Shown: positions 1 through 13,451, counted from the stretch's first letter. The stretch: 13,451 nt of DNA from Byssovorax sp. (GCA_046351295.1 JAXLYT010000035.1:1-13451); one strand, 5' to 3'. Numbers and translations: made by a program. The notes: generated from the letters alone by a model not told the origin.

Positions 1-680
1 CAGTGCACCACATGATACCCACCCCGCGCCTTCACCTGCTCCTTGAGCCGCGCCCGCGTCACCCCGTGACACAGCACATCCACCTCCACGTTCTTCTTCG
101 GCAGCACCTCCCCGAAGAACAGGTCGAGGAGCCGCTCCCGCTCCAGCCGCGCCGCGAGCGGCCGCGCCTCCGGCGCCTCCGCGAACACCAGGAGCACCCG
201 CACCGGCTCCTCCTTCTCCACCCGGATCGCCGCCTCCCTCCCCGGCGCGACCCCGGCCGGCGCCGCCCGCACCACCAGGTTCTTCCCGAGCAGCGTCGCC
301 TCCTCCCCCGGCGCCCGCGCCATCTCCCAGGGCACGCGCGCAAACGCCGCCGCCAGCCAGTCCTCCTTCGGATCGGGCAACCGCACCAGCACCGTCCGCT
401 GGTCGATCCCCTCGGCCAGCACCCGCGCAATCTCGCCCCCGAGCACATGCTCCCCGAGGAAGCCCCCGAGCTCCACGAGCTGCTCCGCCGGCTCCTTCGC
501 CCACCAGAGCCGCCGCACATGCCGCCGCGTATCGAACAGTCCCGACCAGAACGAAGGCCGATGCTTGTCGACCTCCACCTCGTGCGCCCCGAGGTGCCGC
601 CCCGCTTCATCGGCGAGCCGCAGCACCGCCCGCCGCTTCTCGGCGTCCGTCTCGACATCCAGCGTGAACAGCGTGCTCAT
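1..680 (-). CDS. CHAT-domain (caspase/HetF-like) protease family protein, N-terminal 226 codons; 3' end lies beyond the window start
   Basis: This gene is missing from the ORF track because it runs off the window edge. Reading the reverse complement from the ATG (complement of 678-680) gives an uninterrupted 226-codon frame down to position 3, with G/C-rich third positions. The translation runs MSTLFTLDVETDAEKRR...ARVPWEMARAPGEEATLLGKNLVVRAAP...RLERERLLDLFFGEVLPKKNVEVDVLCHGVTRARLKEQVKARGGYHVVH-. The 'LPWE..L ... vvR' segment and the '..TRA.L.....G.YHVVH' ending, which is cut just before the expected 'FxGHG' histidine motif, resemble CHAT domains. An in-frame TGA at the complement of 723-725 bounds the N-terminus. 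GGGAGG sits 4 nt upstream of the ATG. The + ORF 3..734 and - ORF 59..658 in the track are Arg/Pro-rich artefacts of other frames. Confidence 0.55.
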   Translation of the reverse strand, partial: MSTLFTLDVETDAEKRRAVLRLADEAGRHLGAHEVEVDKHRPSFWSGLFDTRRHVRRLWWAKEPAEQLVELGGFLGEHVLGGEIARVLAEGIDQRTVLVRLPDPKEDWLAAAFARVPWEMARAPGEEATLLGKNLVVRAAPAGVAPGREAAIRVEKEEPVRVLLVFAEAPEARPLAARLERERLLDLFFGEVLPKKNVEVDVLCHGVTRARLKEQVKARGGYHVVH

Positions 681-682
681 CC

Positions 683-700
683 GGCCTCCCAGGGGAGGCC
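683..700 (-). promoter_or_regulatory. Perfect palindrome GGCCTCCC-AG-GGGAGGCC overlapping the Shine-Dalgarno of the CHAT gene; it could be an SD-sequestering hairpin or an inter-cistronic stem-loop
   Basis: The 8-bp arms are exact reverse complements. On the mRNA the 3' arm carries the GGGAGG ribosome-binding site just upstream of the ATG at 680. The same CCTCCC/GGGAGG arm sequences recur in the palindromes at 1177-1200 and 1278-1301. Confidence 0.35.
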
Positions 701-748
701 CAGCGTACACGAAACGGAGCGCTCAGCGGGGTGAAGCGCCGCCGAGCC

Positions 749-1111
749 TCACGGCGAAGGCAGCAGCACCTTCCGGATCTTCGCGGCCAGCTTCTCGGCG
801 TGCTGCGCGTCGTCGATGAAGAGCACCTCTTCGTACCAGACATTGAGCGTGTCGACATCCGACAGCGATCGCAGCTTCTCCCGAAGGCCCGCATCGACCG
901 TGCCCAACCAGCGGCTGAGGAGCCGGATGATCGTCTCGGCGAAGACCTTGGCCTCGCCCTTGGTCTCGCCCTTCGCGAAAATTTCCTGGTACAGCGTGCT
1001 TGCCATGAGCTCTGTCTCGCTAATGTAGGCCTTCATGGCCCGGACGGGAACATCTTCTGCTTCGGCGACGCGCCGTAACACGGCCAGGTGGTCGGCTTTC
1101 CACCTGACCAT
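749..1111 (-). CDS. DUF4351 domain protein, a stand-alone or truncated C-terminal module of the Rpn/YhgA-like PD-(D/E)XK putative transposase family
   Basis: This is an ORF-track ORF. The C-terminal ~85 aa read ELMASTLYQEIFAKGETKGEAKVFAETIIRLLSRWLGTVDAGLREKLRSLSDVDTLNVWYEEVLFIDDAQ. They fit the G-x3-G-x3-G ... RLL.R.FG ... L..LS...L..W...L pattern of DUF4351. No upstream nuclease domain is present, and the reading frame is closed beyond 1111. The gene is visibly less GC-rich than its neighbours, with AAA, TTA, GAA, GAT and GTT codons. An alternative start is the ATG at the complement of 1034-1036 (95 aa). Neither start has a convincing SD. Confidence 0.6.
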   Translation of the reverse strand: MVRWKADHLAVLRRVAEAEDVPVRAMKAYISETELMASTLYQEIFAKGETKGEAKVFAETIIRLLSRWLGTVDAGLREKLRSLSDVDTLNVWYEEVLFIDDAQHAEKLAAKIRKVLLPSP

Positions 1112-1165
1112 TGGTCACATCTTCGGAGCCCGGTCATCCGACCGCTCGTACGGCCCTGCCGGAAA

Positions 1166-1200
1166 CCCCACCCCAACCCCTCCCCGCATGCGGGGAGGGG
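1166..1200. repeat. REP-like palindromic element, copy 1 (ccccaccccaa + perfect 24-bp palindrome CCCCTCCCCGCATGCGGGGAGGGG)
   Basis: Positions 1177-1200 are an exact palindrome (12-bp arms). The element is preceded by the C-rich flank ccccaccccaa. A second copy lies in inverted orientation at 1273-1315. Confidence 0.7.
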
Positions 1201-1272
1201 CAGCAATTGCCTATTTTTAAGCGCTTTGCTCTTCCAGGCGCGTCCTGCCAACCCCTGCCCTTTCAACAAGAT

Positions 1273-1315
1273 CCCCTCCCCTCCCCGCTCGCGGGGAGGG
1301 GCTGGGGGTGGGGTC
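1273..1315. repeat. REP-like palindromic element, copy 2, in inverted orientation (CCCCTCCCCG-ctcg-CGGGGAGGGG followed by ctgggggtgggg)
   Basis: A 10-bp perfect stem with a 4-nt loop at 1278-1301. The 3' flank ctgggggtgggg is the reverse complement of the copy-1 5' flank. Together the two copies bracket an AT-richer 72-bp segment (1201-1272) that contains a TATTTTT run. Confidence 0.7.
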
Positions 1316-1333
1316 TAGCAGCGCGCCCCTCAC

Positions 1334-1448
1334 AAATCCCCGAGGTTTTGGAGATCTGATGGAGCGTCAGCTTGCACGCGGAAAGGGGCCGGGGGTGAGG
1401 TTTTGGGCAGCGATCTCCCGCGAAATCCCCGGCGTTTTGGAGATGTGG
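1334..1448. repeat. Two ~27-bp direct repeats (AAATCCCCGrsGTTTTGGAGATsTG) about 89 bp apart, plus a third GAGGTTTTGG copy and a GGAGATC/GATCTCC inverted repeat
   Basis: Positions 1334-1362 and 1423-1448 match at about 22 of 26 positions. The 10-mer GAGGTTTTGG occurs at 1342-1351 and again at 1397-1406. GGAGATC at 1353-1359 is the reverse complement of GATCTCC at 1412-1418. The stretch is non-coding, since every frame gives Arg/Pro-rich nonsense. Confidence 0.6.
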
Positions 1449-1606
1449 CCAATGATCAGCTTTCAACGCGGGGCTCAAGTCCGTCCGCCGCGCGATGGCG
1501 TCGCGGGCCTGATGCGCCGCATCCTTGGTCGCCTCGTCGGCCGTGAGCGCCACGAGCGGTCCCAGCATACCCTGGCCCACCGGCCGCCCTGCATCGCCGA
1601 TCGCCA

Positions 1607-1906
1607 CCTCGAAACGCCCCCGGAGCACCGCCGGCTGGCCTCCACGCGCCTCGAAACGCCTCCCGCACGCCCCTGCAAGAGCCCACCGCCGCCTCGAAAC
1701 GCCTCCCGCACGCCCCTGCAAGAGCCCATGGCCGCCTCGAAATGCCCGCCGCACGCCCCGGCAAGGACTGCCCCGTGCCTCGAAATGCTCGCTGCGCGCC
1801 CCGGCGCGGGCTGCCCTCAACCTCGAAACGCTCTCCGCGCGCCCCTGCAAGGGTCGCCCTGCGCCTCGAACCGCCCTCCCGGCACCACGGCAGCGCCGAT
1901 CGCCCG
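1607..1906. repeat. Tandem array of 43-bp repeats, 7 copies, consensus CCTCGAAACGCCTCCCGCACGCCCCTGCAAGAGCCCACCGCCG; a non-coding minisatellite
   Basis: CCTCGAAA/CCTCGAAC recurs at 1607, 1649, 1692, 1735, 1778, 1821 and 1864, giving periods of 42 or 43 bp. Copies 2 and 3 are nearly identical and the outer copies are diverged. The period is not a multiple of 3 and there are no unique spacers, so this is neither coding nor a CRISPR array. A shorter ~20-bp x3 repeat (..CCGGCAGCC..) follows at 1901-1961. Confidence 0.8.
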
Positions 1907-2081
1907 CCCGGCAGCCCCGCCGCCCGTCCGGCAGCCCTCCGCGGCCTCCCGGCAGTCTCCGCCGTCCGTCCAGCCCGTTCCGCCGGCCGCTGGGGGCCCC
2001 TCCACCGGCACCCCGGCCTGCCTCGTCCGGCCGAAAATCCCAACCCCGCGCAAATTTTGTGCGCCTGGGCTCACCCGGTCG

Positions 2082-2111
2082 TTGACGAAGAAATTGCGAA
2101 ATTGCTAGGCT
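2082..2111 (+). promoter_or_regulatory. Candidate sigma-70-type promoter for the histone-like/Fic gene: TTGACG-N18-TAGGCT, with the spacer containing the direct repeat AAATTGCGAAATTGC
   Basis: TTGACG lies at 2082-2087 and TAGGCT at 2106-2111 (spacer 18 nt), within the only AT-richer stretch upstream of the ATG at 2197. An imperfect palindrome GCGCAAATTTTGTGCGC lies just upstream at 2048-2064. This is a weak, sequence-only call. Confidence 0.2.
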
Positions 2112-2196
2112 CTGCCGCGGCTGCACTGACTCGCTGTCCAGCTTGACAGGCACACCGTTCCGTAGTTGGCCCCGAGCGACGGATGGATCTCGGCCC

Positions 2197-3804
2197 ATGG
2201 CGGCAAAAAAATCCAAGAAACCCAAGCAAAAGGCCCCGAAGCGTGCCGCGAAGCCGGCGCGCCCCACGACCCGCGCGGCCAAGAAGAAGGCCGTGGCGCG
2301 CGCCAAGCCGGCGGTGAAGAAGGCCGCCCCCAAGAAAGCCCCGAAGCCGAAGCGTCCGGCCGCGAAGAAGGCCGTGAAGAAGGCGGTCGTCAAGAAGGCC
2401 GCCGCGAAGAAGAAGGCCGTCGTCAAGAAGGCCGCGCCGAAAAAGGCGGCGGTGAAGAAGGGCCCGGTCAAGAAGGCCCTCGCCCGGAAGCCCGCGCCCA
2501 AGGCGCCGGTGAAGAAGGCGGCCCCGAAGAAGGCTGAAAAGCCCGCCAAGAAGGCCCTCAAGAAGGCCGAAAAGCCGGTCAAGAAGGCCCCGAAGGCCGA
2601 AAAGCCGGTCAAGAAGGCCGAGAAGCTCGTCGAGAAGGCTTCGAAGAAGGCTGAAAAGCCGGCGAAGAAGGCCGAGAAGGTCGTCGAGAAGGCCCCGAAG
2701 AAGGTCGAGGTGCCGGCCAAGAAGGGGGCGCTCGCCAAGGCGCCGCCTTCGAAGCCGGTCGCGCCGCCTTCGAAGAAAGGGCTGCCGGAGGCCCGGCCGT
2801 CGGCGGGCAAGCGGCCCGTCCCGGCGCCGCCCGTCTCGGCCCCGAAGAAGAGCAGCCCCGGCAAGGAAGCGCCGCCCGCCAGGCGGAGCGACCGGCCCAT
2901 GGAGGCCGCGGGGAAGAAGCGCAGCTCGGCGCCGCCTCCGCCCGCCAAGGGCGGCAAGAAGGGGGCGCCCCTCGCTCCCGTGCGCGAGCCCCCGCCTCGC
3001 CTCGTCACCCTGCCCCTGCCCACGCTCCAGGCGCCCAAACGCCCCAGCGTGGAAGAGCGCTCGGCGTCGATCGAGAAGCGCCTCGCCGGCCAGACGGACG
3101 ACTTCCGCAAGCGCTACCTCGACAGCCTCGATATGTCGTGGATTTACCACGACAGCGCGCTCGAAGGGACCGTCTACACCTTCGAAGAGCTGCGCGCCGG
3201 CTTCTCCGGCCAGCCCCAGCCCATCACCGACTCGAACCTCCAGCCGACCTTCGAGGACATCCGGCGGCACAAGGAGGCCATCGAGTACGTCCGCGATTTC
3301 GGCGAGAAAAAGCGGCTCCCCGTCACGGTCGACGTGATCAAGAAGATCTACCTCATCCTCCACCCGGAGGAGGGCGACATCAAGACCGTGAAGTACCGGA
3401 AGGACATCCCCCAGCATCGCCTCTACTTCCACGAGTACGCCCCGCCGGACAAGATCGCCTACAAAGTCCGGCAAATCGTGGACTGGCTGAACGACCCGGA
3501 GACGCGCAAGACGCGCAACGGCATCCGCATCGCCGCCCGCGCGCACTACGATCTGCTCCGCGTCTACCCCTTCCCCACCGACAGCGGGAAGACGGCGCGC
3601 CTGTTCATGAACTTGCTGCTGCTGCGGAGCGGATTGCCGCCGGCGATCCTCCACTCCACGGAGCGGCAGCGCTACTACGAGGCCCTGAAGGGCTCGGCCA
3701 CCACGGTGCTCCAGATGGTGCAAGAGGCGGTGGAGAACGCCCTCTCCAGCGTCGAAAAGCTCCTCGATGAGCACGAAACGAAGAAGCGCGCCTTCGTCTC
3801 CTGA
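2197..3804 (+). CDS. Fusion protein: N-terminal histone H1-like Lys/Ala/Pro-repeat (AKKA/KKAEKPVKKA) domain joined to a C-terminal Fic/Doc-family domain with a degenerate active-site motif
   Basis: A single 535-codon frame opens at ATG 2197; the track extends it upstream to TTG 2143. Residues 1 to ~290 are K/A/P-rich repeats of the histone H1 / Hc1 / AlgP type, encoded by AAG-rich near-tandem 33-36-nt nucleotide repeats around 2530-2700. The C-terminal ~230 aa carry Fic-fold signatures. SWIYHDSALEGTVYT resembles Fic 'iyhSnaIEGN'. HYDLLRVYPFPTDSGKTARLFMNLLLLRSGLPPAIL aligns to HPFx(D/E)GNGRxxRLlmnllLlraGyPp, but with His->Tyr, D->T, G->D, N->S and R->K. This is followed by ERQRYYEAL. The stop is TGA at 3802-3804. 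Confidence 0.75.
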   Translation: MAAKKSKKPKQKAPKRAAKPARPTTRAAKKKAVARAKPAVKKAAPKKAPKPKRPAAKKAVKKAVVKKAAAKKKAVVKKAAPKKAAVKKGPVKKALARKPAPKAPVKKAAPKKAEKPAKKALKKAEKPVKKAPKAEKPVKKAEKLVEKASKKAEKPAKKAEKVVEKAPKKVEVPAKKGALAKAPPSKPVAPPSKKGLPEARPSAGKRPVPAPPVSAPKKSSPGKEAPPARRSDRPMEAAGKKRSSAPPPPAKGGKKGAPLAPVREPPPRLVTLPLPTLQAPKRPSVEERSASIEKRLAGQTDDFRKRYLDSLDMSWIYHDSALEGTVYTFEELRAGFSGQPQPITDSNLQPTFEDIRRHKEAIEYVRDFGEKKRLPVTVDVIKKIYLILHPEEGDIKTVKYRKDIPQHRLYFHEYAPPDKIAYKVRQIVDWLNDPETRKTRNGIRIAARAHYDLLRVYPFPTDSGKTARLFMNLLLLRSGLPPAILHSTERQRYYEALKGSATTVLQMVQEAVENALSSVEKLLDEHETKKRAFVS

Positions 3805-4603
3805 GCGCCGCGGCCCTCGCGCCGCGGCCCCAACCGCGCGCGTGAGCAAGCGGAAGACGGTTGCGTCGTCCGCGGCGACCACCGGTGCTTCCAGCCGTCG
3901 TCCCAGGCGAGCCAAGCCGGCCCCGAAGAATCGGCCCCGGGACGAGGCGCGGCCGACCTATGCGCGCCTGCGCCTCCTGTACCCCGACGCCCATTGCGAG
4001 CTCATCCACGCGGACTCGTTCACGCTCCTCGTGTCGACGGTCCTCAGCGCGCAGACGACGGACGTCCTCGTCAACAAGGTCACCCCCCACCTGTTCGCGC
4101 GCTGGCCCACCGCCAAGGCCCTCGGCGCGGCCGATCCTTCCGACGTCGCCGCCCTCCTCGCCGAGCGCGGGATGGGCATGTACAACCAGAAGGCGAAGAA
4201 CATCGTCGGCCTGAGCCGTCTCTTGATGGAGAAGCACGGCGGCCATGTCCCCCGCACCCTGGCCGAGCTCGTCGAGCTGCCCGGCGTCGGCCGGAAGACG
4301 GCCAACGTCGTCCTCGGCGTCGCCTTCGGGATGCCCGAGGGCGTCGTCGTCGACACCCATGTCCAGCGCCTGAGCCAGCGCCTCGGCTGGACGAAGCAGA
4401 CGGAGCCGGGGCCGATCGAGCAAGACCTGTGCGCCCTCTTCCCCCGCGAAGACTGGGACATGCTCTCCCACACGCTCATCTTTCATGGCCGCCGCACCTG
4501 CACGGCCCTTCGCCCGGCGTGTGCGGCGTGTGGTGTGAATGACGCGTGCCCGAGCGCCTTCAAGGCCGAAAACGTGGGCCGAAAGAAAGGGCGAGTCCGG
4601 TGA
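3767..4603 (+). CDS. nth: Endonuclease III (DNA-(apurinic or apyrimidinic site) lyase / thymine glycol glycosylase)
   Basis: The HhH-GPD motif is LVELPGVGRKTANVVL, with its catalytic Lys. The conserved Asp is in VVVDTHVQRL. A C-terminal [4Fe-4S] ligand set C-x6-C-x2-C-x5-C is present (CTALRPACAACGVNDAC). The protein is colinear with E. coli Nth from RPTYARLRLLYPDAHCEL onward. If ATG 3767 is the start there is a ~60-aa basic N-terminal extension and a 38-nt overlap with the upstream gene. GTG 3842 is an alternative start. Neither has a clear SD. Confidence 0.9.
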   Translation: MSTKRRSAPSSPERRGPRAAAPTARVSKRKTVASSAATTGASSRRPRRAKPAPKNRPRDEARPTYARLRLLYPDAHCELIHADSFTLLVSTVLSAQTTDVLVNKVTPHLFARWPTAKALGAADPSDVAALLAERGMGMYNQKAKNIVGLSRLLMEKHGGHVPRTLAELVELPGVGRKTANVVLGVAFGMPEGVVVDTHVQRLSQRLGWTKQTEPGPIEQDLCALFPREDWDMLSHTLIFHGRRTCTALRPACAACGVNDACPSAFKAENVGRKKGRVR

Positions 4604-4752
4604 TGTGCCGCTGCCCCGGCCATCCCGCCGACGGATCAGCACAACAAACAGCACCGCGACCGGTAGGGAGCGGACCGAGCAGGCATTACCTGCAAGGAAG
4701 CAACCACGTCGAGAGCCGAGGCCAAGTCGCTCGCGGATCGGCCTGGGCGGGG

Positions 4753-4870
4753 CGGTGCTTGCGGGTGGCGTGGGAGATGACGGGGGCCGGTGGCTGCGCG
4801 GTCCGCTCCCTGCCGGTCGCGGTGCTGTTCCTGGTGGCGTGGGAGATGACGGGGGCCGGTGGCTGTGCGG
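4753..4870. repeat. Two copies of a ~50-bp direct repeat (CGGTGCT..GGTGGCGTGGGAGATGACGGGGGCCGGTGGCTGyGCGG) in the uvrA leader
   Basis: The copies at 4753-4801 and 4818-4870 are near-identical over ~38 bp at their 3' ends, with a period of ~67 bp. They end 20 bp before the uvrA ATG. No LexA-type palindrome was recognised within them. Confidence 0.7.
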
Positions 4871-4893
4871 GGGGGGTGGGTGAGGTTTTATGA
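4777..4893 (+). CDS. Possible 38-aa upstream ORF / leader peptide (MTGAGGCAVRSLPVAVLFLVAWEMTGAGGCAGGVGEVL) whose stop overlaps the uvrA start as ATGA
   Basis: It is in frame with the track ORF 4546..4893. Third codon positions are nearly all G/C. The TGA at 4891-4893 overlaps the uvrA ATG at 4890-4892. The peptide repeats the WEMTGAGGCA motif because it spans the DNA direct repeat. It has no good SD, since GGGAG directly abuts the ATG, so the call is speculative. Confidence 0.2.
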   Translation: MTGAGGCAVRSLPVAVLFLVAWEMTGAGGCAGGVGEVL

Positions 4894-7775
4894 AACGGTC
4901 GTCTCTGCGTCGTGTGGCTGCGAAGGAGCCGGATTTCATCGAGGTGATTGGCTCGAAGGAGCACAACCTCGCGATCGAGCACCTCGAGATACCCAAGAGG
5001 CAGCTCGTGGTGTTCACGGGGGTCAGCGGGTCGGGCAAGTCGAGCCTCGCGTTCGATACGCTCTATGCCGAGGGGCAGCGGCGGTATGTCGAGACGCTGA
5101 GCGCGTATGCCCGGCAGTTCCTCGGGCAGCTCGAACGGCCGCATGTCGACCACCTGCGGGGGCTTTCGCCGACGATCGCCATCGAGCAGAAGAGCGCGTC
5201 GGGCAACCCCCGGTCGACGGTGGGCACCATCACGGAGATCTACGATTATCTCCGCGTGCTCTATGCCCGCGTGGGCGAGCAGTATTGCCACCTCTGCGGG
5301 GAGAAGGTCACGGCCCAGAGCTCGGACCAGATCGTCAAGGAGATCCAGGCCCTTCCCCAGGGCACGAAGCTCACGATGGTGGCGCCCCTCGTCAGCCATC
5401 GGAAGGGCGAGTTTCGCGATCTGTTCGAGGAATTGCGCGGTCGAGGCTTTGCGCGGGTCGTCGTCAACGATGTGACCTACAAGCTCGATGAGGTGCCGAA
5501 GCTCGACAAGAAGAAGAAGCACACCATCTGGCTCGTGGCCGATCGGATCACCGTCTCTCCGGAGGATCGCGGGCGCATCGCCGAGAGCGTCGAGGTCGCG
5601 CTCAAGGAGGGCAAGGGCGAGATGCGCGCGCTCTTCAGCGACGGCAAGCGCGAGCCCTTGGTGTTCAGCGAGCTGCGCACCCACTGCGGGCACAGCTTCC
5701 CGGCCCTCTCGCCGCAGAGCTTCTCGTTCAACAGCCCGCTCGGCATGTGCAGCGAGTGCAACGGCCTCGGCACAAGGCTCGAGGTCGATCCCGAGCTCAT
5801 CGTCCCCGATCCTTCGCTGTCCATCCGTGACGGCGCCATCGCCCCGTGGGCGTCGGGCATGGCCCGCGGCGAGGGGTGGACGTTCCGCATCGCCGACGCC
5901 GTGGCCAAGGCATGCGCCGTCAAGCTCGACACGCCCTGGAACAAGCTCCCCAAGTCGAAGCAGGACCGGGTGCTCTACGGCCTCGAAGGCGAGCGGATCA
6001 GCGTCCAGTGGGGCAAGGAAGGGTCGGAGAGCCATGGCACCTTCGGGATGCGCTTCGAGGGCGTGATCCCGAACCTGATGCGCCGCTATCGCGACACCAC
6101 CTCCGAGCAGGCCCGCGAGCACTACCGCGTCTTCATGAGCGAGCGCCGCTGCGACACCTGCGGCGGCAAGCGCCTGCGCCCCGAGACGCTGGCCGTGAAG
6201 CTCGCGAAGAAGAGCATCGCCGATGTCACCGCCTTCACCGTGCGCGAGGCGGCGGCACACATGGCCTCGCTCGGCCTCGAAGGCGCCCAGCAGACGATCG
6301 CCGCCGGCGCGCTGCGGGAGATCGAGGCGCGCCTCTCGTTCTTGCTCAACGTCGGCCTCGATTACCTCACCCTCGAACGCAGCGTGCCCAGCTTGAGCGG
6401 CGGTGAGGCCCAGCGCATCCGCCTCGCGAGCCAGCTCGGGAGCGAGCTCTCGGGCGTGATGTACGTGCTCGACGAGCCGAGCATCGGCCTGCACCAGCGG
6501 GACAACCAGCGCTTGATCGAGACCTTGCGCCGCCTGCGCGATCTCGGCAACAGCGTCGTGGTCGTCGAGCACGACGAGGAGACCATCCGCGCGGCCGATC
6601 ACCTCGTCGATTTCGGCCCGGGCGCCGGCCACCTCGGCGGCAAGGTCATGTACAGCGGCCCCCCCGAGGGCATCGAGAAGGATCCGACGAGCCTGACGGG
6701 GGCCTACCTCTCGGGGAAGAAGAAGATCGATCTGCCCAGCTCGCGCCGCACCGCCAAGGGAGCGCTCAGCATCCTCGGCGCCCGGGAGCACAACCTCAAG
6801 AACATCGATGTTCGCTTCCCGCTCGGCGTGCTCACCGCCGTCACCGGCGTGAGCGGCGCCGGCAAGAGCTCGCTCGTCAATGGCATCCTCCTGCCGGCCC
6901 TCGGCAAGGCGCTTTATCAAGCCAAGGACCCGGTGGGCGCCCACCGCCGCATCGATGGGCTCGACTCCATCGACAAGGCCATCGCCATCGATCAGAAGCC
7001 CATCGGCCGCACCCCGCGATCGAACCCCGGCACGTACACCAAGGCCTTCGACCTCATCCGCGACATCTTCGCCGAGCTGCCCGAGTCCCGCGCGCGGGGC
7101 TTCAATGGCGGGCGATTCTCCTTCAACGTCAAGGGAGGACGCTGCGAGTCGTGCCACGGCGACGGCGTGGTCAAGGTGGAGATGCACTTCCTCGCCGACG
7201 TGTACGTGCCCTGCGAGGTGTGCGAGGGAAAGCGCTACAACGCCCAGACCTTGAGCGTGCGCTTCAAGGGCAAGAACATCGCCGAGGTGCTCGACTCGAG
7301 CGTCGATGATTGCCTGGCGATGTTCTCCTCGTTCCCTGCCCTCCGGCGCGTCCTTCAAACCCTCTCCGACGTGGGCCTCGGCTACATGAAGATCGGCCAG
7401 AGCGCGCCCACGATGAGCGGCGGCGAGGCCCAGCGGGTGAAGCTCTCGCGCGAGCTCGGCAAGACGCAGACGGGCAAGACGTTCTACGTGCTCGACGAGC
7501 CGACGACGGGCCTGCACTTCGAGGACATCCACAAGCTCCTCCTCGTGCTGCAAAGGCTCGTGGACGCCGGCAACTCCGTGGTGGTGATCGAGCACAACCT
7601 CGATGTCATCAAGTGCGCCGACTGGATCATCGACCTCGGCCCCGAGGGCGGCGGAGGCGGCGGGCGGATCATCGCCGAGGGGACGCCCGAGCAGGTGGCG
7701 AAGGTCGAGGGCTCGTACACCGGGCAATTCCTCGCGCCGCTGCTCGGAAGGAAGCGGGGGCGCGCGGCGAGCTGA
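4890..7775 (+). CDS. uvrA: Excinuclease ABC subunit A
   Basis: 961 aa with two ABC ATPase modules. The Walker A motifs are GVSGSGKSSLAF and GVSGAGKSSLV. The ABC signatures are LSGGEAQRIRLA and MSGGEAQRVKLS. The Walker B motifs are YVLDEPS and YVLDEPT. The Cys pairs of the UvrA zinc modules are CHLCGEK, CSECNGLG, CDTCGGKR, CESCHGDG and CEVCEGKRY. The SD is GAGG 4-5 nt before the ATG. The frame is uninterrupted. Confidence 0.97.
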   Translation: MKRSSLRRVAAKEPDFIEVIGSKEHNLAIEHLEIPKRQLVVFTGVSGSGKSSLAFDTLYAEGQRRYVETLSAYARQFLGQLERPHVDHLRGLSPTIAIEQKSASGNPRSTVGTITEIYDYLRVLYARVGEQYCHLCGEKVTAQSSDQIVKEIQALPQGTKLTMVAPLVSHRKGEFRDLFEELRGRGFARVVVNDVTYKLDEVPKLDKKKKHTIWLVADRITVSPEDRGRIAESVEVALKEGKGEMRALFSDGKREPLVFSELRTHCGHSFPALSPQSFSFNSPLGMCSECNGLGTRLEVDPELIVPDPSLSIRDGAIAPWASGMARGEGWTFRIADAVAKACAVKLDTPWNKLPKSKQDRVLYGLEGERISVQWGKEGSESHGTFGMRFEGVIPNLMRRYRDTTSEQAREHYRVFMSERRCDTCGGKRLRPETLAVKLAKKSIADVTAFTVREAAAHMASLGLEGAQQTIAAGALREIEARLSFLLNVGLDYLTLERSVPSLSGGEAQRIRLASQLGSELSGVMYVLDEPSIGLHQRDNQRLIETLRRLRDLGNSVVVVEHDEETIRAADHLVDFGPGAGHLGGKVMYSGPPEGIEKDPTSLTGAYLSGKKKIDLPSSRRTAKGALSILGAREHNLKNIDVRFPLGVLTAVTGVSGAGKSSLVNGILLPALGKALYQAKDPVGAHRRIDGLDSIDKAIAIDQKPIGRTPRSNPGTYTKAFDLIRDIFAELPESRARGFNGGRFSFNVKGGRCESCHGDGVVKVEMHFLADVYVPCEVCEGKRYNAQTLSVRFKGKNIAEVLDSSVDDCLAMFSSFPALRRVLQTLSDVGLGYMKIGQSAPTMSGGEAQRVKLSRELGKTQTGKTFYVLDEPTTGLHFEDIHKLLLVLQRLVDAGNSVVVIEHNLDVIKCADWIIDLGPEGGGGGGRIIAEGTPEQVAKVEGSYTGQFLAPLLGRKRGRAAS

Positions 7776-8715: not shown

Positions 8716-10968
8716 ATGTCTCGCCGAGGCGACAGCCCTGAAGACCTCCTCTCGCGCGGGCGCGCGGCGCTCCGGCAGGGCCGCGCCGAGGAGGCGCGCG
8801 CGGCGTTCGAGGCGGTCCTCCGCCTGCGCCCGACCCTCGCGGAGGGCCACCTCGGGCTCGGCCGGGCGCTTGTCCGGCTGGTCGTGATCGAGGCGGCGCG
8901 CTCATCTTCTTCCAGCGCGCCGCGCGCCTCGGCGCGGAGAGCGCGCGCCTGTCGTTCGAGGCCTTGCCGGAGGCCCCGCCCCGCCGGGATTTCACGATCG
9001 GGCAGTCGATCCGGGGCGAGGCCACGGGCATTCGCTACACGGTGCGCGACATCAGGCGCGGGACGTTCGGCGCCGTCTACCTGGTCGACGACGACCGGAG
9101 CGCGCCCCATGCCCTCAAGACCTTCCAGGCTCGCCATTCGTGGAGCGACGACGATCGCCGCCGCTTCGAGCGGAGGCGCTCACCTGGGTCAACCTGGATC
9201 ACCACCCTCATATCGTCTGGGCCAGGTGGATGGAGGTCATCGAAGGGTTCTTGTGCCTCGTGCTCGAGCAGGTGCCCGGCGGCGATCTCGGAGGGCTCCT
9301 GGCCGCCCGAGGCCCTTTGCCCGCGGGCCGGGCGCTCTCGCTCGCCCTCGATCTCTGCGACGCGATGGCCCATGCCCATGATCGATCCGGCGTCGTCCAC
9401 CGGGACATCAAGCCGTCGAACTGCCTGCTGACCGTCGAGGGGCGCCTGAAGATCGGCGATTTCGGCCTCGCCCGCGCCTTCGGCGAGAGGGGCCATGGCC
9501 CCGGCGCCGCCCCGACCGGCGAGCCCTGCTCGACCACGCCGGCCGGATCGCTCCCGTACATGGCCCCGGAGCAGCACGACCGCGCGGCCATCCTCGACAC
9601 GCGCGCGGACATCCACGCGCTCGGCGTGATGCTCTACGAGATGCTCACGGGCGATCGCCCCCTCTCGGGCAGCAGGGCAGAGGCCCATGTCCTCGCCGGC
9701 GCCGCGCGGCGCTCGATCCCTCCCGCGCTCGCAGACGCCTTGCTCCACCTCGTCGCTCGATCCCCGGCCGATCGCCCGCCCGATTTCGATCGAGCGAGGG
9801 AGATGCTCACCCCCATCGCCGCCGCGCTCGGGGCCCGCCCGGCGCCGCGGGCGAAGGCGATCGTCATGGGCCCCGACGATCTGAAGAACAAGGCCATCGC
9901 GCTCGTCGCCCTCCGCCGCGACGAGGAGGCGCTCGCCTGCTTCGAGGAGGCGCTCGCGCGCTCGCCGGACGACGCCGCCCTCTGGAAGGGCGCCGGCGTG
10001 GCCCACCACGCCCTCGGCCGCTACACGGAGGCGCTCCGCTGCCACCGCAGGGGCCTCGCGATCGCCCCCGGTGACCCGGGGCTGTGGAACAACATGAGCC
10101 TCACGGAGCGCGCGCTCGGCAATGTGGACGCCGCCCTGGCATGCTGCGCAGAGGGGCTTTCGCGCGCGCCCCGCGATCCGAAGCTGCTCGGCAACCAGGG
10201 TGAGCTGCTGCACTCGAGAGACGATCTCGCCGGGGCGCTCTCTTGCTACGACGCCGCCTTGGCCGTCGTGCCGGGCGACACCGACCTGGAGGGGAAGAGG
10301 GGGTATGTGCTGCTCGACCTCGGCCGCCACGAGGAGGCCGGAGCATGCTTTGAAGCGGCGCTCGCCGTCACGCCGCGCAGCGCCGCGCTGTGGCGAGGCC
10401 TCGGCGCCGCGTGGCACCGGCGCGGCGCCTGCGAGCAGGCCGTCCGCTGCTACCGCTACGCCGCCGAGATCGATCCTCGTAGGGCCGATGTCCACCGGAT
10501 GCTCGGCCAGGCCCTGCTCTCGATCGGACGGCCCGAAGAGGCCCTCGCCGCGCTCGAGCAGGCCATCGATGTCTCTGCCTCCGATCGCGAAGCCCACGTG
10601 GCGATGGCCGCGGCGCTGAGCGTCCTCGGCCGCCTCGAAGAGGCCTGCGCGCGCTCATGCGCGCCACGCCGATCTCGGCCCGCCGGACGAGGACCTGTGC
10701 CTCGGGGCCGTGCTCCACCGGCTCGGGCGGCTGGAAGAGGCGCTGCGCTGGTCGGCGCGAGGGGCGGCCCTCGCGCCGGCCAACCCCTGGTTGCAGGAGA
10801 ACCTCGGTCATATCCCTGACCGCGCTCGGCCGGCTCGACGAGGCGCTGGCCGAGATCGAGCGAGGGGCCGAGATCGACCCGGACAACGCGGGGATACGGG
10901 AGCTGCGAGCCCGGCTGCTCGAACGCCTGGGCAAGGCCGATGAAGCGATGGATCGACGGCAGCGCTGA
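8716..10968 (+). pseudogene. Ser/Thr protein kinase (Hanks type) with one N-terminal and ~10 C-terminal TPR repeats, interrupted by at least four single-nucleotide frameshifts; either an authentic pseudogene or indel errors in the sequence
   Basis: Coding segments occupy different frames. (a) 8716 to ~8895, frame 1 mod 3: MSRRGDSPEDLLSRGRAALRQGRAEEARAAFEAVLRLRPTLAEGHLGLGRAL (TPR). (b) ~8895 to 9172, frame 0: ALIFFQRAARLGAES...DFTIGQSIRGEATGIRYTVRDIRRGTFGAVYLVDDDRSAPHALKTF...DDDRRRFER (Gly-loop and VAIK Lys). (c) 9173 to ~10650, frame 2: EALTWVNLDHHPHIV...HRDIKPSNCLL...DFGLAR...YMAPEQ, then about 10 TPRs. (d) ~10660 to 10810, frame 0: DEDLCLGAVLHRLGRLEEALRWSARGAALAPANPWLQENLG. (e) ~10815 to 10968, frame 1: SLTALGRLDEALAEIERGAEIDPDNAGIRELRARLLERLGKADEAMDRRQR. 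At 9171-9176 the sequence reads CGGAGG; restoring one G (CGGGAGG) gives FEREALTWVNLDH, so one G appears to be missing there. The start codon is 4 nt after the stop of the upstream gene (TGAtggATG). Confidence 0.7.
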
Positions 10969-12389: not shown

Positions 12390-12417
12390 TCCGCCTTGCA
12401 GGTAAGGAGACAACGTG

Positions 12418-13451
12418 ATGGTCAGCTCGACCCAGCTCGACGATACGAAGCGCGTCTCGATGGAGCAGGCCCTGGCCGAGGCGGCGAACCTCGCGCTGCT
12501 CATCCATCACCCGCGCGGCGCCCAGGCGATCCCGCTCTGGCCGGGCCGGACGGTGGTGGTGGGGCGCGAGCCCGACGGCTCGGAGGACGATTTCGTCGAG
12601 ATCCCCGACGACTCCGTCTCGAAGCGGCATGCCAGGTTCTTCGCCGGCGAGGGCCGGGTGCTCGTCAGGGATCTCGGCTCCACGAACGGGACCCGCGTCG
12701 GGACAACGCTGCTCCAGGGCGGAGACCCCGTGCGCATCGAGGTCGGAACAACCATGTTCCTCGGCAAGGTGTTCGCGGCCCTCGTGGTGGCGAGCTGCGA
12801 CGCCGCGAGCCTGGACGACGATGCCGCCGCGGCATCATCCCTCTCGCCCGTGGCGGCGAGCGGCCCGATGAAGGCCCTCATCGAGGACATCAGGCCCATC
12901 GAGCCCGTCTCGTCGCCGGTGCTCCTCCTCGGCGAGACCGGGACGGGCAAGGAGGTGCTCGCCCACTTCATCCACCGCACGAGCCGACGGCGGAACGCGC
13001 GCTTCGTCGCGGTCAACTGCGGCGCCATCCCGGCGGCGCTCGCCGAGAGCGAGCTCTTCGGCCACGTGAAGGGCGCGTTCACCGGCGCGATCGATCGCAG
13101 AGGGGTCTTCGAGGTCGCCTCGGGCGGCACGCTCTTCCTCGACGAGATCGGAGACCTCCCGCTCGACCTCCAGGTCAAGCTGCTCCGCGTCCTGCAAGAG
13201 GGCGTCGTCCGGCGCGTCGGCAGCAACGAGGACAGGCCGGTCGACGTCCGTCTCGTCTCGGCCACCCACCGCGACCTCTCGAAGATGGTCGCCAAGGGCG
13301 GGTTTCGGGAAGACCTTTATTACCGGATCAACATCATCGATTTCCACATTCCCCCGCTCCGCGACAGGAGAGACGATATCCCCCCGCTCGCCCGGCGCCT
13401 GCTCCGGACCCTGAGCCAGAAGGCCGGCCGGACGATCGGCGCGATCGACGC
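12418..13451 (+). CDS. Sigma-54-dependent transcriptional activator (bacterial enhancer-binding protein) with an N-terminal FHA domain; 3' end lies beyond the window
   Basis: SD AAGGAG at 12404-12409 lies 8 nt before ATG 12418, and GTG 12415 is an alternative start. The FHA domain is [12 protein letters not shown]...[28 protein letters not shown]. The sigma-54 AAA+ domain has Walker [15 protein letters not shown]. The GAFTGA motif sits in [15 protein letters not shown]. The Walker B motif is [27 protein letters not shown]. The frame is uninterrupted to the window end, and the gene is missing from the ORF track because it has no stop within the window. Confidence 0.9.

Follow-up and report, generated by a model that had tools for sequence, protein, structure and literature searches.

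A noncoding 43-bp tandem repeat array in lineage-specific spacer DNA upstream of the Fic-nth-uvrA cluster of Byssovorax sp.

The window analyzed here, a stretch of 13,451 nucleotides from Byssovorax sp. (GCA_046351295.1 JAXLYT010000035.1:1-13451), contains an array of seven 43-bp units in a spacer that has no counterpart in related loci. The array is probably a noncoding, higher-order minisatellite, specific to this lineage, that was made by slippage within rearranged spacer DNA and that most likely has no required function. Both the slippage mechanism and the absence of function are conclusions that we infer. The closest known kind of element is the bacterial intergenic minisatellite, or variable-number tandem repeat (VNTR). 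Uneven conservation within the repeat unit is the sole hint of a function.

Genomic setting of the array

The array lies in a gene-free gap of 1,085 bp (1112-2196) between divergently transcribed genes, in agreement with the 1.1-kb gene-free region given in a preliminary description of this DNA. The features of the window are as follows.

3-722, minus strand: unnamed gene with no Pfam hit
749-1111, minus strand: 120-amino-acid (aa) gene with a weak DUF4351 match (PF14261, E = 0.001, below the curated cutoff)
1112-2048: lineage-specific noncoding spacer carrying the arrays, about 940 bp, with no counterpart in related loci
~1578-1604: degenerate half-unit at the left array edge, similar to the second half of the 43-mer; GCCGATCGCC, at its end, is found again at 1895-1904
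1605-1904: 43-bp tandem array of seven units (u1 to u7; u1 = 42 bp), 75% GC
1888-1968: 20- to 21-bp tandem array of ~3.9 copies (CGCCCGyCCGGCAGCCC...), related to the second half of the 43-mer
2049-2196, plus strand: Fic promoter and 5' leader, conserved in a six-sequence alignment
2197-3804, plus strand: Fic-domain protein with a Lys/Ala/Pro-rich, histone-H1-like N-terminal half (PF02661, E = 9e-10)
3767-4603, plus strand: nth (HhH-GPD)
4890-7775, plus strand: uvrA
9140-10819, plus strand: Pkinase-TPR
12406-13449, plus strand: FHA-sigma54 activator

The Fic protein, encoded by the first gene of the Fic-nth-uvrA cluster, is 100% identical to P0001 ("MAG: Fic family protein [Byssovorax sp.]"). 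On the other side of the gap, the product of 749-1111 is 100% identical to P0121 ("hypothetical protein U0359_21995 [Byssovorax sp.]"), for which just 13 further homologues were found, none exceeding 58% identity over most of its length. The local GC content of this DUF4351-like gene (~62%) is below that of the surrounding DNA. Loci carrying DUF4351 homologues have no equivalent upstream array, and a functional link between the array and this gene was therefore rejected.

Homologues occur in Sorangium, Polyangium, Chondromyces, and Minicystis, members of the family Polyangiaceae with chromosomes of 11 to 16 Mb. The earlier characterization of the gap as unusually long for a compact genome is thus misplaced; the extra length corresponds to DNA that lies to the left of 2049 and is specific to this lineage.

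The N-terminal half of the Fic protein (~first 270 residues; window 2197-3000) is itself encoded by in-frame tandem repeats with periods of 12 to 84 bp. Fic orthologues range from about 300 to about 650 aa, and the length and pattern of their N-terminal repeats vary. A coding, length-variable repeat region is thereby located directly beside the noncoding array.

Anatomy of the 43-bp array

The seven units start at positions 1605, 1647, 1690, 1733, 1776, 1819, and 1862, with a spacing of 42 bp once and then 43 bp five times. Three approaches converge on this arrangement. Tandem Repeats Finder reported a period of 43 at 1645-1881 (5.5 copies, 79% matches, score 181), with an inner core at 1647-1765 that reaches 92% matches. 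A repeat finder returned six overlapping 73-nt copies, each spanning ~1.7 units, at exact 43-bp spacing from 1604, which jointly cover the seven units. In pattern scans, CCTCGAAAYGCN5GCRCGCCCC (three or fewer mismatches) gave six matches, compared with 0.04 expected, all on the plus strand and all within the array. The 11-mer CCTCGAAAYGC occurs, likewise on the plus strand, at 1607, 1649, 1692, 1735, 1778, and 1821 and, with one mismatch, at 1864 in unit 7. Neither the degenerate pattern nor the 11-mer revealed a copy of the unit outside the array in the 13.4-kb window. The repeat array with a 42- to 43-bp period, first noted from the sequence alone, is therefore real.

The consensus of the unit is CGCCTCGAAACGCCnnCCGCrCGCCCCkGCAAGrGCnnnCCnn. 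The top strand of 1605-1904 is C rich (147 C versus 78 G), and strand composition is strongly asymmetric, with a GC skew of -0.26 to -0.32. At the array edges, the repeat finder matched the 26-mer at 1580-1605 to a second copy at 1879-1904 (81% identity).

Units u2 and u3 are 95% identical (41/43), identities among u2 to u6 are 65 to 79%, and the end units u1 and u7 share 56 to 63% with the others. The flanking copies had been described as diverged, which holds, and the central copies as identical, which overstates their similarity. The proposed conserved core also stands in part: the block CCTCGAA is invariant across all units, whereas CCCTGCAAG is restricted to u2, u3, and u6.

A shared repeat family and a probable slippage origin

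The additional short repeat mentioned in the preliminary description (20 bp in three copies) proved to be a somewhat larger array. Tandem Repeats Finder placed it at 1888-1968 with a period of 21, 3.9 copies, and 72% matches; its two most similar copies (1901-1917 and 1921-1937) share 94% identity and are spaced by 20 bp, and its autocorrelation at lags 20 to 21 is 0.56 to 0.58. For the 43-bp array, autocorrelation is 0.68 at lag 43, 0.60 at lag 86, and 0.59 at lag 129. Sub-peaks of 0.41 to 0.46 appear at lags 21 to 22, 64 to 65, and 107 to 108, compared with a null of 0.338 +/- 0.028. In addition, each half of the 43-mer can be aligned with the other (p about 0.04), and the second half aligns with the adjacent 20- to 21-bp unit (p = 0.0065). 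This weak 21.5-bp sub-period ties the 43-mer to the neighboring 20- to 21-bp repeat, as in a higher-order repeat produced by slippage or unequal exchange. The whole block from 1578 to 1968 thus looks like one family of ~21-bp repeats that was partly reorganized into a 43-bp dimer and then amplified.

A plausible history can be proposed in four steps. A rearrangement or insertion would have created the spacer DNA upstream of the conserved Fic-nth-uvrA cluster. Within it, a progenitor of ~21.5 bp may have been duplicated to give the 43-bp dimer unit, which would then have expanded, through replication slippage or unequal recombination, to about 7.6 copies. The latest duplication would have yielded u2 and u3, with the edge copies having decayed; the simpler 20- to 21-bp array at the right edge would derive from the same stock as the 43-mer. 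The identity gradient, with the youngest copies in the middle and decayed copies at the edges, fits an origin by slippage or unequal exchange, and the array indeed has the slippage-type look ascribed to it from inspection of the unit identities. Any effect of such an array would be incidental, for example by altering the distance to upstream DNA in steps of ~4 helical turns.

Noncoding-looking arrays were also found in two other loci from uncultured, probably related bacteria (21 bp in 18 copies in L158; 42/63 bp in L159), which suggests that arrays of this sort are common in genomes of this type.

Absence of the array from related loci

The comparison set comprised five loci with Fic orthologues (L032, L033, L154, L155, and L156). 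In all five, Fic lies beside nth and/or uvrA, with no nth called in L154. Upstream of Fic, L032, L155, and L156 carry a kinase-TPR gene of ~1,770 aa, and L154 carries a TPR gene of 1,516 aa. The called spacer upstream of Fic measures about 310 to 390 bp in four of the five loci; that of L156 is 1.4 kb and includes an extra, different ORF. Relative to L032, the closest related locus (85.5% identity for uvrA DNA), homology at the DNA level starts at window position 2049. Left of this position, no similarity to the five related upstream spacers was detected above a shuffled null, and none of the five loci has a comparable tandem array upstream of Fic. Taken together, the end of homology at 2049 and the lack of an array in relatives place the array in about 940 bp of lineage-specific spacer.

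Two candidate sources of this DNA were considered and rejected. No trace of the ~1,770-aa kinase gene of the relatives was found in the spacer by tblastn, which argues against a decayed copy of that gene. A single-copy progenitor in L032 (GCCGATCACTCGAAATCGG, picked by eye) gave local alignment scores within the shuffled null.

Synteny is broken across window positions 600 to 2048, where two minus-strand genes occupy the place of the ~1,770-aa kinase-TPR gene of L032, L155, and L156. The window does have one kinase-TPR gene, downstream of uvrA, but it encodes a distant paralogue of 559 aa. The break points to a rearrangement or insertion, or possibly to a chimeric MAG contig.

Immediately to the right of the break, the Fic promoter and leader are strikingly conserved across Polyangiaceae-like contigs. 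The promoter consists of a -35 element, TTGACG (2082-2087), an 18-nt spacer in which GAAATTGC occurs twice, and a -10 element, TAGGCT (2106-2111). Alignment of the six sequences shows no variation in GTTGACGA, in CTC, or in most of the C-AAATTGCTA block, and the -10 hexamer is TAGGCT in all but L155, which has TACCCT. A further conserved block, ACTGAsTCGnTGTnCAG, is present in the promoter and leader region. This conservation, together with the direct duplication of GAAATTGC, suggests a conserved regulator site within the promoter spacer.

The 43-bp array (ending at 1904) and the 20- to 21-bp array (ending at 1968) stop 178 bp and 114 bp, respectively, upstream of the -35 box at 2082. In contingency loci, short units of 1 to about 9 bp lie in an ORF or between the -35 and -10 elements, and their copy number switches expression. 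The suggestion that this array is a contingency locus therefore fails, given its 43-bp unit and the 114 to 178 bp that separate the repeats from the -35 box. Because the relatives drive the same Fic promoter without an array, the array is probably dispensable for expression of either flanking gene.

Conservation of the unit core and the possibility of a binding array

Columns 1 to 14 of the unit (CGCCTCGAAAYGCC) contain 9 mismatches in 98 cells, versus 57 in 203 for the remaining columns (Fisher p = 2e-4, with the split chosen post hoc), and CCTCGAA is retained in 7/7 copies, including the most decayed (permutation p = 0.007). These values describe seven nonindependent copies after the fact, and indels in u1 and u7 may inflate the 3' mismatches because the comparison used an ungapped register. 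Neutral decay alone would be expected to be more even, and the core may thus be under some constraint.

A conserved core repeated every 43 bp (~4.1 helical turns) is the expected look of a phased direct-repeat array of binding sites. Under such a reading, each CCTCGAAAYGC core would be bound by one unit of a protein that recognizes specific DNA sequences, whether a regulator, a nucleoid-associated protein, or a centromere-like binder, with successive sites on the same helix face forming a nucleoprotein filament or a reservoir of sites upstream of the divergent promoters. We regard this as unlikely, if conceivable. It accounts for a core that is much better kept than the rest of the unit even in the end copies, for the strict spacing, and for the placement of all cores on one strand. 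A precedent exists in sopC of the F plasmid, described as 12 direct repeats of 43 bp, each containing a 16-bp inverted repeat bound by SopB (PMC3177203). The present array resembles sopC in its 43-bp unit, in its direct tandem order, and in having a short conserved core within a less conserved unit.

The likeness does not extend further. Unlike those of sopC, the units here contain no inverted repeat: one imperfect palindrome is present in u1 (1622-1643) and in no other unit, and no unit hairpin was better than shuffles. Apart from u1, this lack of a palindrome or hairpin excludes both REP-like elements and the sopC architecture. The array also differs from sopC in having no sequence similarity to it and in its chromosomal-looking context, with the housekeeping genes uvrA and nth alongside. 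A Pfam scan of the window ORFs identified Fic, HhH-GPD/nth, UvrA, Pkinase-TPR, FHA-sigma54 activator, and weak DUF4351 domains; none is ParA or ParB like (sopA/sopB type), and no Rep or obvious DNA-binding partner was found among the ORFs scanned. An enhancer-type role with sigma-54 was rejected, as no -24/-12 promoter occurs in the spacer. Finally, the array is missing from 5/5 related loci despite a nearly invariant Fic promoter, the species genomes scanned (see below) contain nothing similar, and the statistic that favors binding has the post hoc character noted above.

A more specific version of the binding-array reading is a newly evolved nucleoprotein platform, in which a putative Byssovorax protein would occupy CCTCGAAAYGC at sites phased every four turns, at least seven in number; we consider this distinctly unlikely. 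Equally doubtful is the accompanying proposal that such a platform would serve filament nucleation, insulation, or factor titration at the divergent DUF4351 and Fic-nth-uvrA promoters.

Possible assembly artifacts

It is very unlikely that the array reflects a metagenome misassembly, either as a contig that is chimeric near GC-rich repeats or as a copy number made wrong by the collapse of near-identical units. In favor of an artifact, the sequence comes from a MAG, only about 80 bp separate the repeat block from the synteny break at 2049, and the near identity of u2 and u3 across 86 bp means that further identical copies could have collapsed in a short-read assembly. Against this, seven copies that diverge progressively yet stay in perfect register are not something an assembler would invent, and the same extreme GC3 is found on both sides of the break (0.91 in the leftmost gene; 0.90 to 0.92 in Fic and uvrA). 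A genuine rearrangement is also plausible, as L156 and L033 likewise differ upstream of Fic.

RNA structure and transcription

The preliminary description raised the possibility that the region is the source of an unannotated RNA. As a structured RNA, this proposal finds no support: the array folds no better than shuffles on either strand (z = +1.75 on the plus strand and +0.37 on the minus strand), and Rfam returned solely sub-threshold noise from microRNA models, at 1166-1316. A G-quadruplex on the G-rich minus strand was rejected, with no motif within 1605-1900 even when loops of up to 12 nt were allowed.

More broadly, the repeats could act as RNA within a noncoding, long-leader, or antisense transcript, either G rich and directed toward the DUF4351 gene or C rich and reading through toward Fic. 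The spacer separates divergent genes, so part of it must be transcribed as a 5' leader, and the strand asymmetry reported above is strong. However, besides the fold and Rfam results, a scan of 700-2400 for sigma-70-like promoters found none, and the single terminator-like site on the plus strand (1198-1212) lies far to the left of the array. Moreover, the conserved Fic promoter is downstream of the array, which excludes the array from the Fic mRNA. We therefore assign an RNA role a slim probability.

Coding potential

The array was previously judged noncoding in part because all frames appeared to be nonsense. The judgment holds, but not this reason for it: the frames are not filled with stops, and only one stop codon occurs over all six frames of the array, with Arg/Pro/Ala-rich translations. 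This scarcity follows from a unit that has no stop triplets and is copied seven times; as the copies are not independent, it was rejected as evidence of coding. GC content by codon position is flat across 1621-1980 (0.72 to 0.80), compared with GC3 values of 0.92 to 0.97 in neighboring genes. A word-indexed protein search with two frame translations, one per strand, retrieved nothing at E <= 0.1. An exhaustive phmmer search with the minus-strand frame against 1.84 billion representatives gave two spurious hits, both summed from weak stretches in unrelated repeat proteins, and Pfam had no hit in the array region. In the five related loci, no conserved protein-coding gene spans the region.

That the region is nevertheless a gene or decayed pseudogene, such as a minus-strand frame that contains IGDAGRPVGQGMLGPLVALTADEATKDAAHQARDAIARRTDLS at 1440-1600 and continues through the repeats, is barely credible: the near absence of stops and a weak codon-position GC pattern at 1441-1620 (0.53/0.78/0.78) are outweighed by the results above and by a 43-bp period that shifts the frame at each unit, with lag 129 no higher than lag 86 and thus no three-unit coding super-period.

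Distribution and comparison with known repeat systems

Among 185,579 species genomes scanned for the unit, no array was found, and the 31 single matches, from unrelated taxa, are attributed to chance; viral contigs gave no matches. In these collections, the unit accordingly shows no sign of being a widespread REP family, an alternative that had been raised at the outset. A two-unit pattern was also used to scan metagenomes, and among the matches listed (120 loci), none resembles the array. These matches are dominated by an unrelated element from the human gut (L034 to L153; CCTCGAAACGCAGATAGATGTCCGAACGAGCCTGAAGCACCCCCTCGAAACGC), which is highly conserved and contains the 11-mer core at 42-bp spacing.

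Head-to-tail units of 10 to 100 bp in noncoding DNA define an intergenic minisatellite or VNTR, and the array has these properties. Mycobacterial MIRU-type repeats, with units of about 40 to 100 bp, are bacterial intergenic minisatellites and VNTR loci; they form a dispersed family with many loci per genome and polymorphic copy numbers. Like these repeats, the array consists of intergenic tandem units of tens of base pairs in a high-GC genome, has no coding capacity, and combines young central copies with decayed edges, with slippage as the presumed origin. The unit sequence, however, is unrelated to that of MIRUs, and the array has the 21.5-bp sub-period.

Three other systems invite comparison. 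As in eukaryotic-style higher-order satellites, a ~21-bp monomer is contained in a 43-bp dimer that is itself amplified, although the array is bacterial, occupies about 0.4 kb, and has no known structural role. A regularly spaced conserved block of about 28 nt is reminiscent of CRISPR. The earlier statement that this is not a CRISPR array was nonetheless correct: the least conserved ~15 nt between blocks are homologous among units rather than unique spacers, the window has no cas genes, and the repeat forms no hairpin. Finally, unlike REP, BIME, and MITE sequences, the array unit is neither palindromic nor hairpin forming; a separate element of the spacer, at 1160-1320, is palindromic.

Other repeats in the window and in related DNA

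The element at 1160-1320, just upstream of the DUF4351 gene start, consists of two GC-rich REP-like hairpins (1166-1200 and 1273-1312; CCCCTCCCCGC..GCGGGGAGGGG) that pair into one long hairpin with 35-nt arms (86% complementary), a 77-nt loop richer in AT, and an RNA fold z of -7.7. Its core motif is absent from the 159 loci compared. This may be a MITE- or BIME-like element or, alternatively, a bidirectional terminator or insulator. To its right, a pair of ~50-bp direct repeats (AAATCCCCGnnGTTTTGGAGAT...CAGCTTnCAACGCGG; ~1335-1385 and ~1425-1475, within 1333-1480) lies ~90 bp apart; it was recognized by eye and was not reported by the repeat finder.

The spacer between nth and uvrA (4604-4889, roughly 290 bp) is absent in relatives, with nth and uvrA overlapping or abutting in L032 and L155. 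Within this spacer (fold z of -5.3), two 46-nt arms form an inverted repeat (4640-4685 and 4791-4836; 87% complementary), and a 43-nt segment is directly repeated at a spacing of 69 (4759-4801 and 4828-4870; 93% identity). The region has the appearance of a second palindromic insertion specific to this lineage and may be a MITE.

At 5967-6457 of L158, a 21-bp array of 18.3 copies (CTTGCCCTCGCTCACGCCCGG, 92% matches) is followed by a perfect 21-bp array of three copies. Both lie in an apparently noncoding gap downstream of a DUF4351 homologue (P0127, 50% identical) and are unrelated in sequence to the window array. The L158 locus also holds a CHAT-domain gene; assignment of window gene 3-722 as a CHAT protein was rejected, as Pfam returned no hit for this gene and its product does not resemble the L158 CHAT protein. 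With such arrays in other loci and further lineage-specific repeat or palindrome insertions in the window itself, these genomes seem prone to repeat-rich spacer DNA.

Implications

The array would gain interest only if its conserved 11-bp core proved to be a protein-binding site. Were the platform reading true, the locus would be a chromosomal counterpart to iteron or sopC-type arrays, functioning in the absence of palindromic sites. If, instead, the array is the minisatellite that we favor and its copy number varies, the locus could mark strains of uncultured Byssovorax, with limited practical value. For the biology of the group, the minisatellite reading would illustrate how large myxobacterial genomes gain repeat-rich, lineage-specific spacer DNA at points of rearrangement while the Fic-nth-uvrA cluster next to it retains its core promoter intact.
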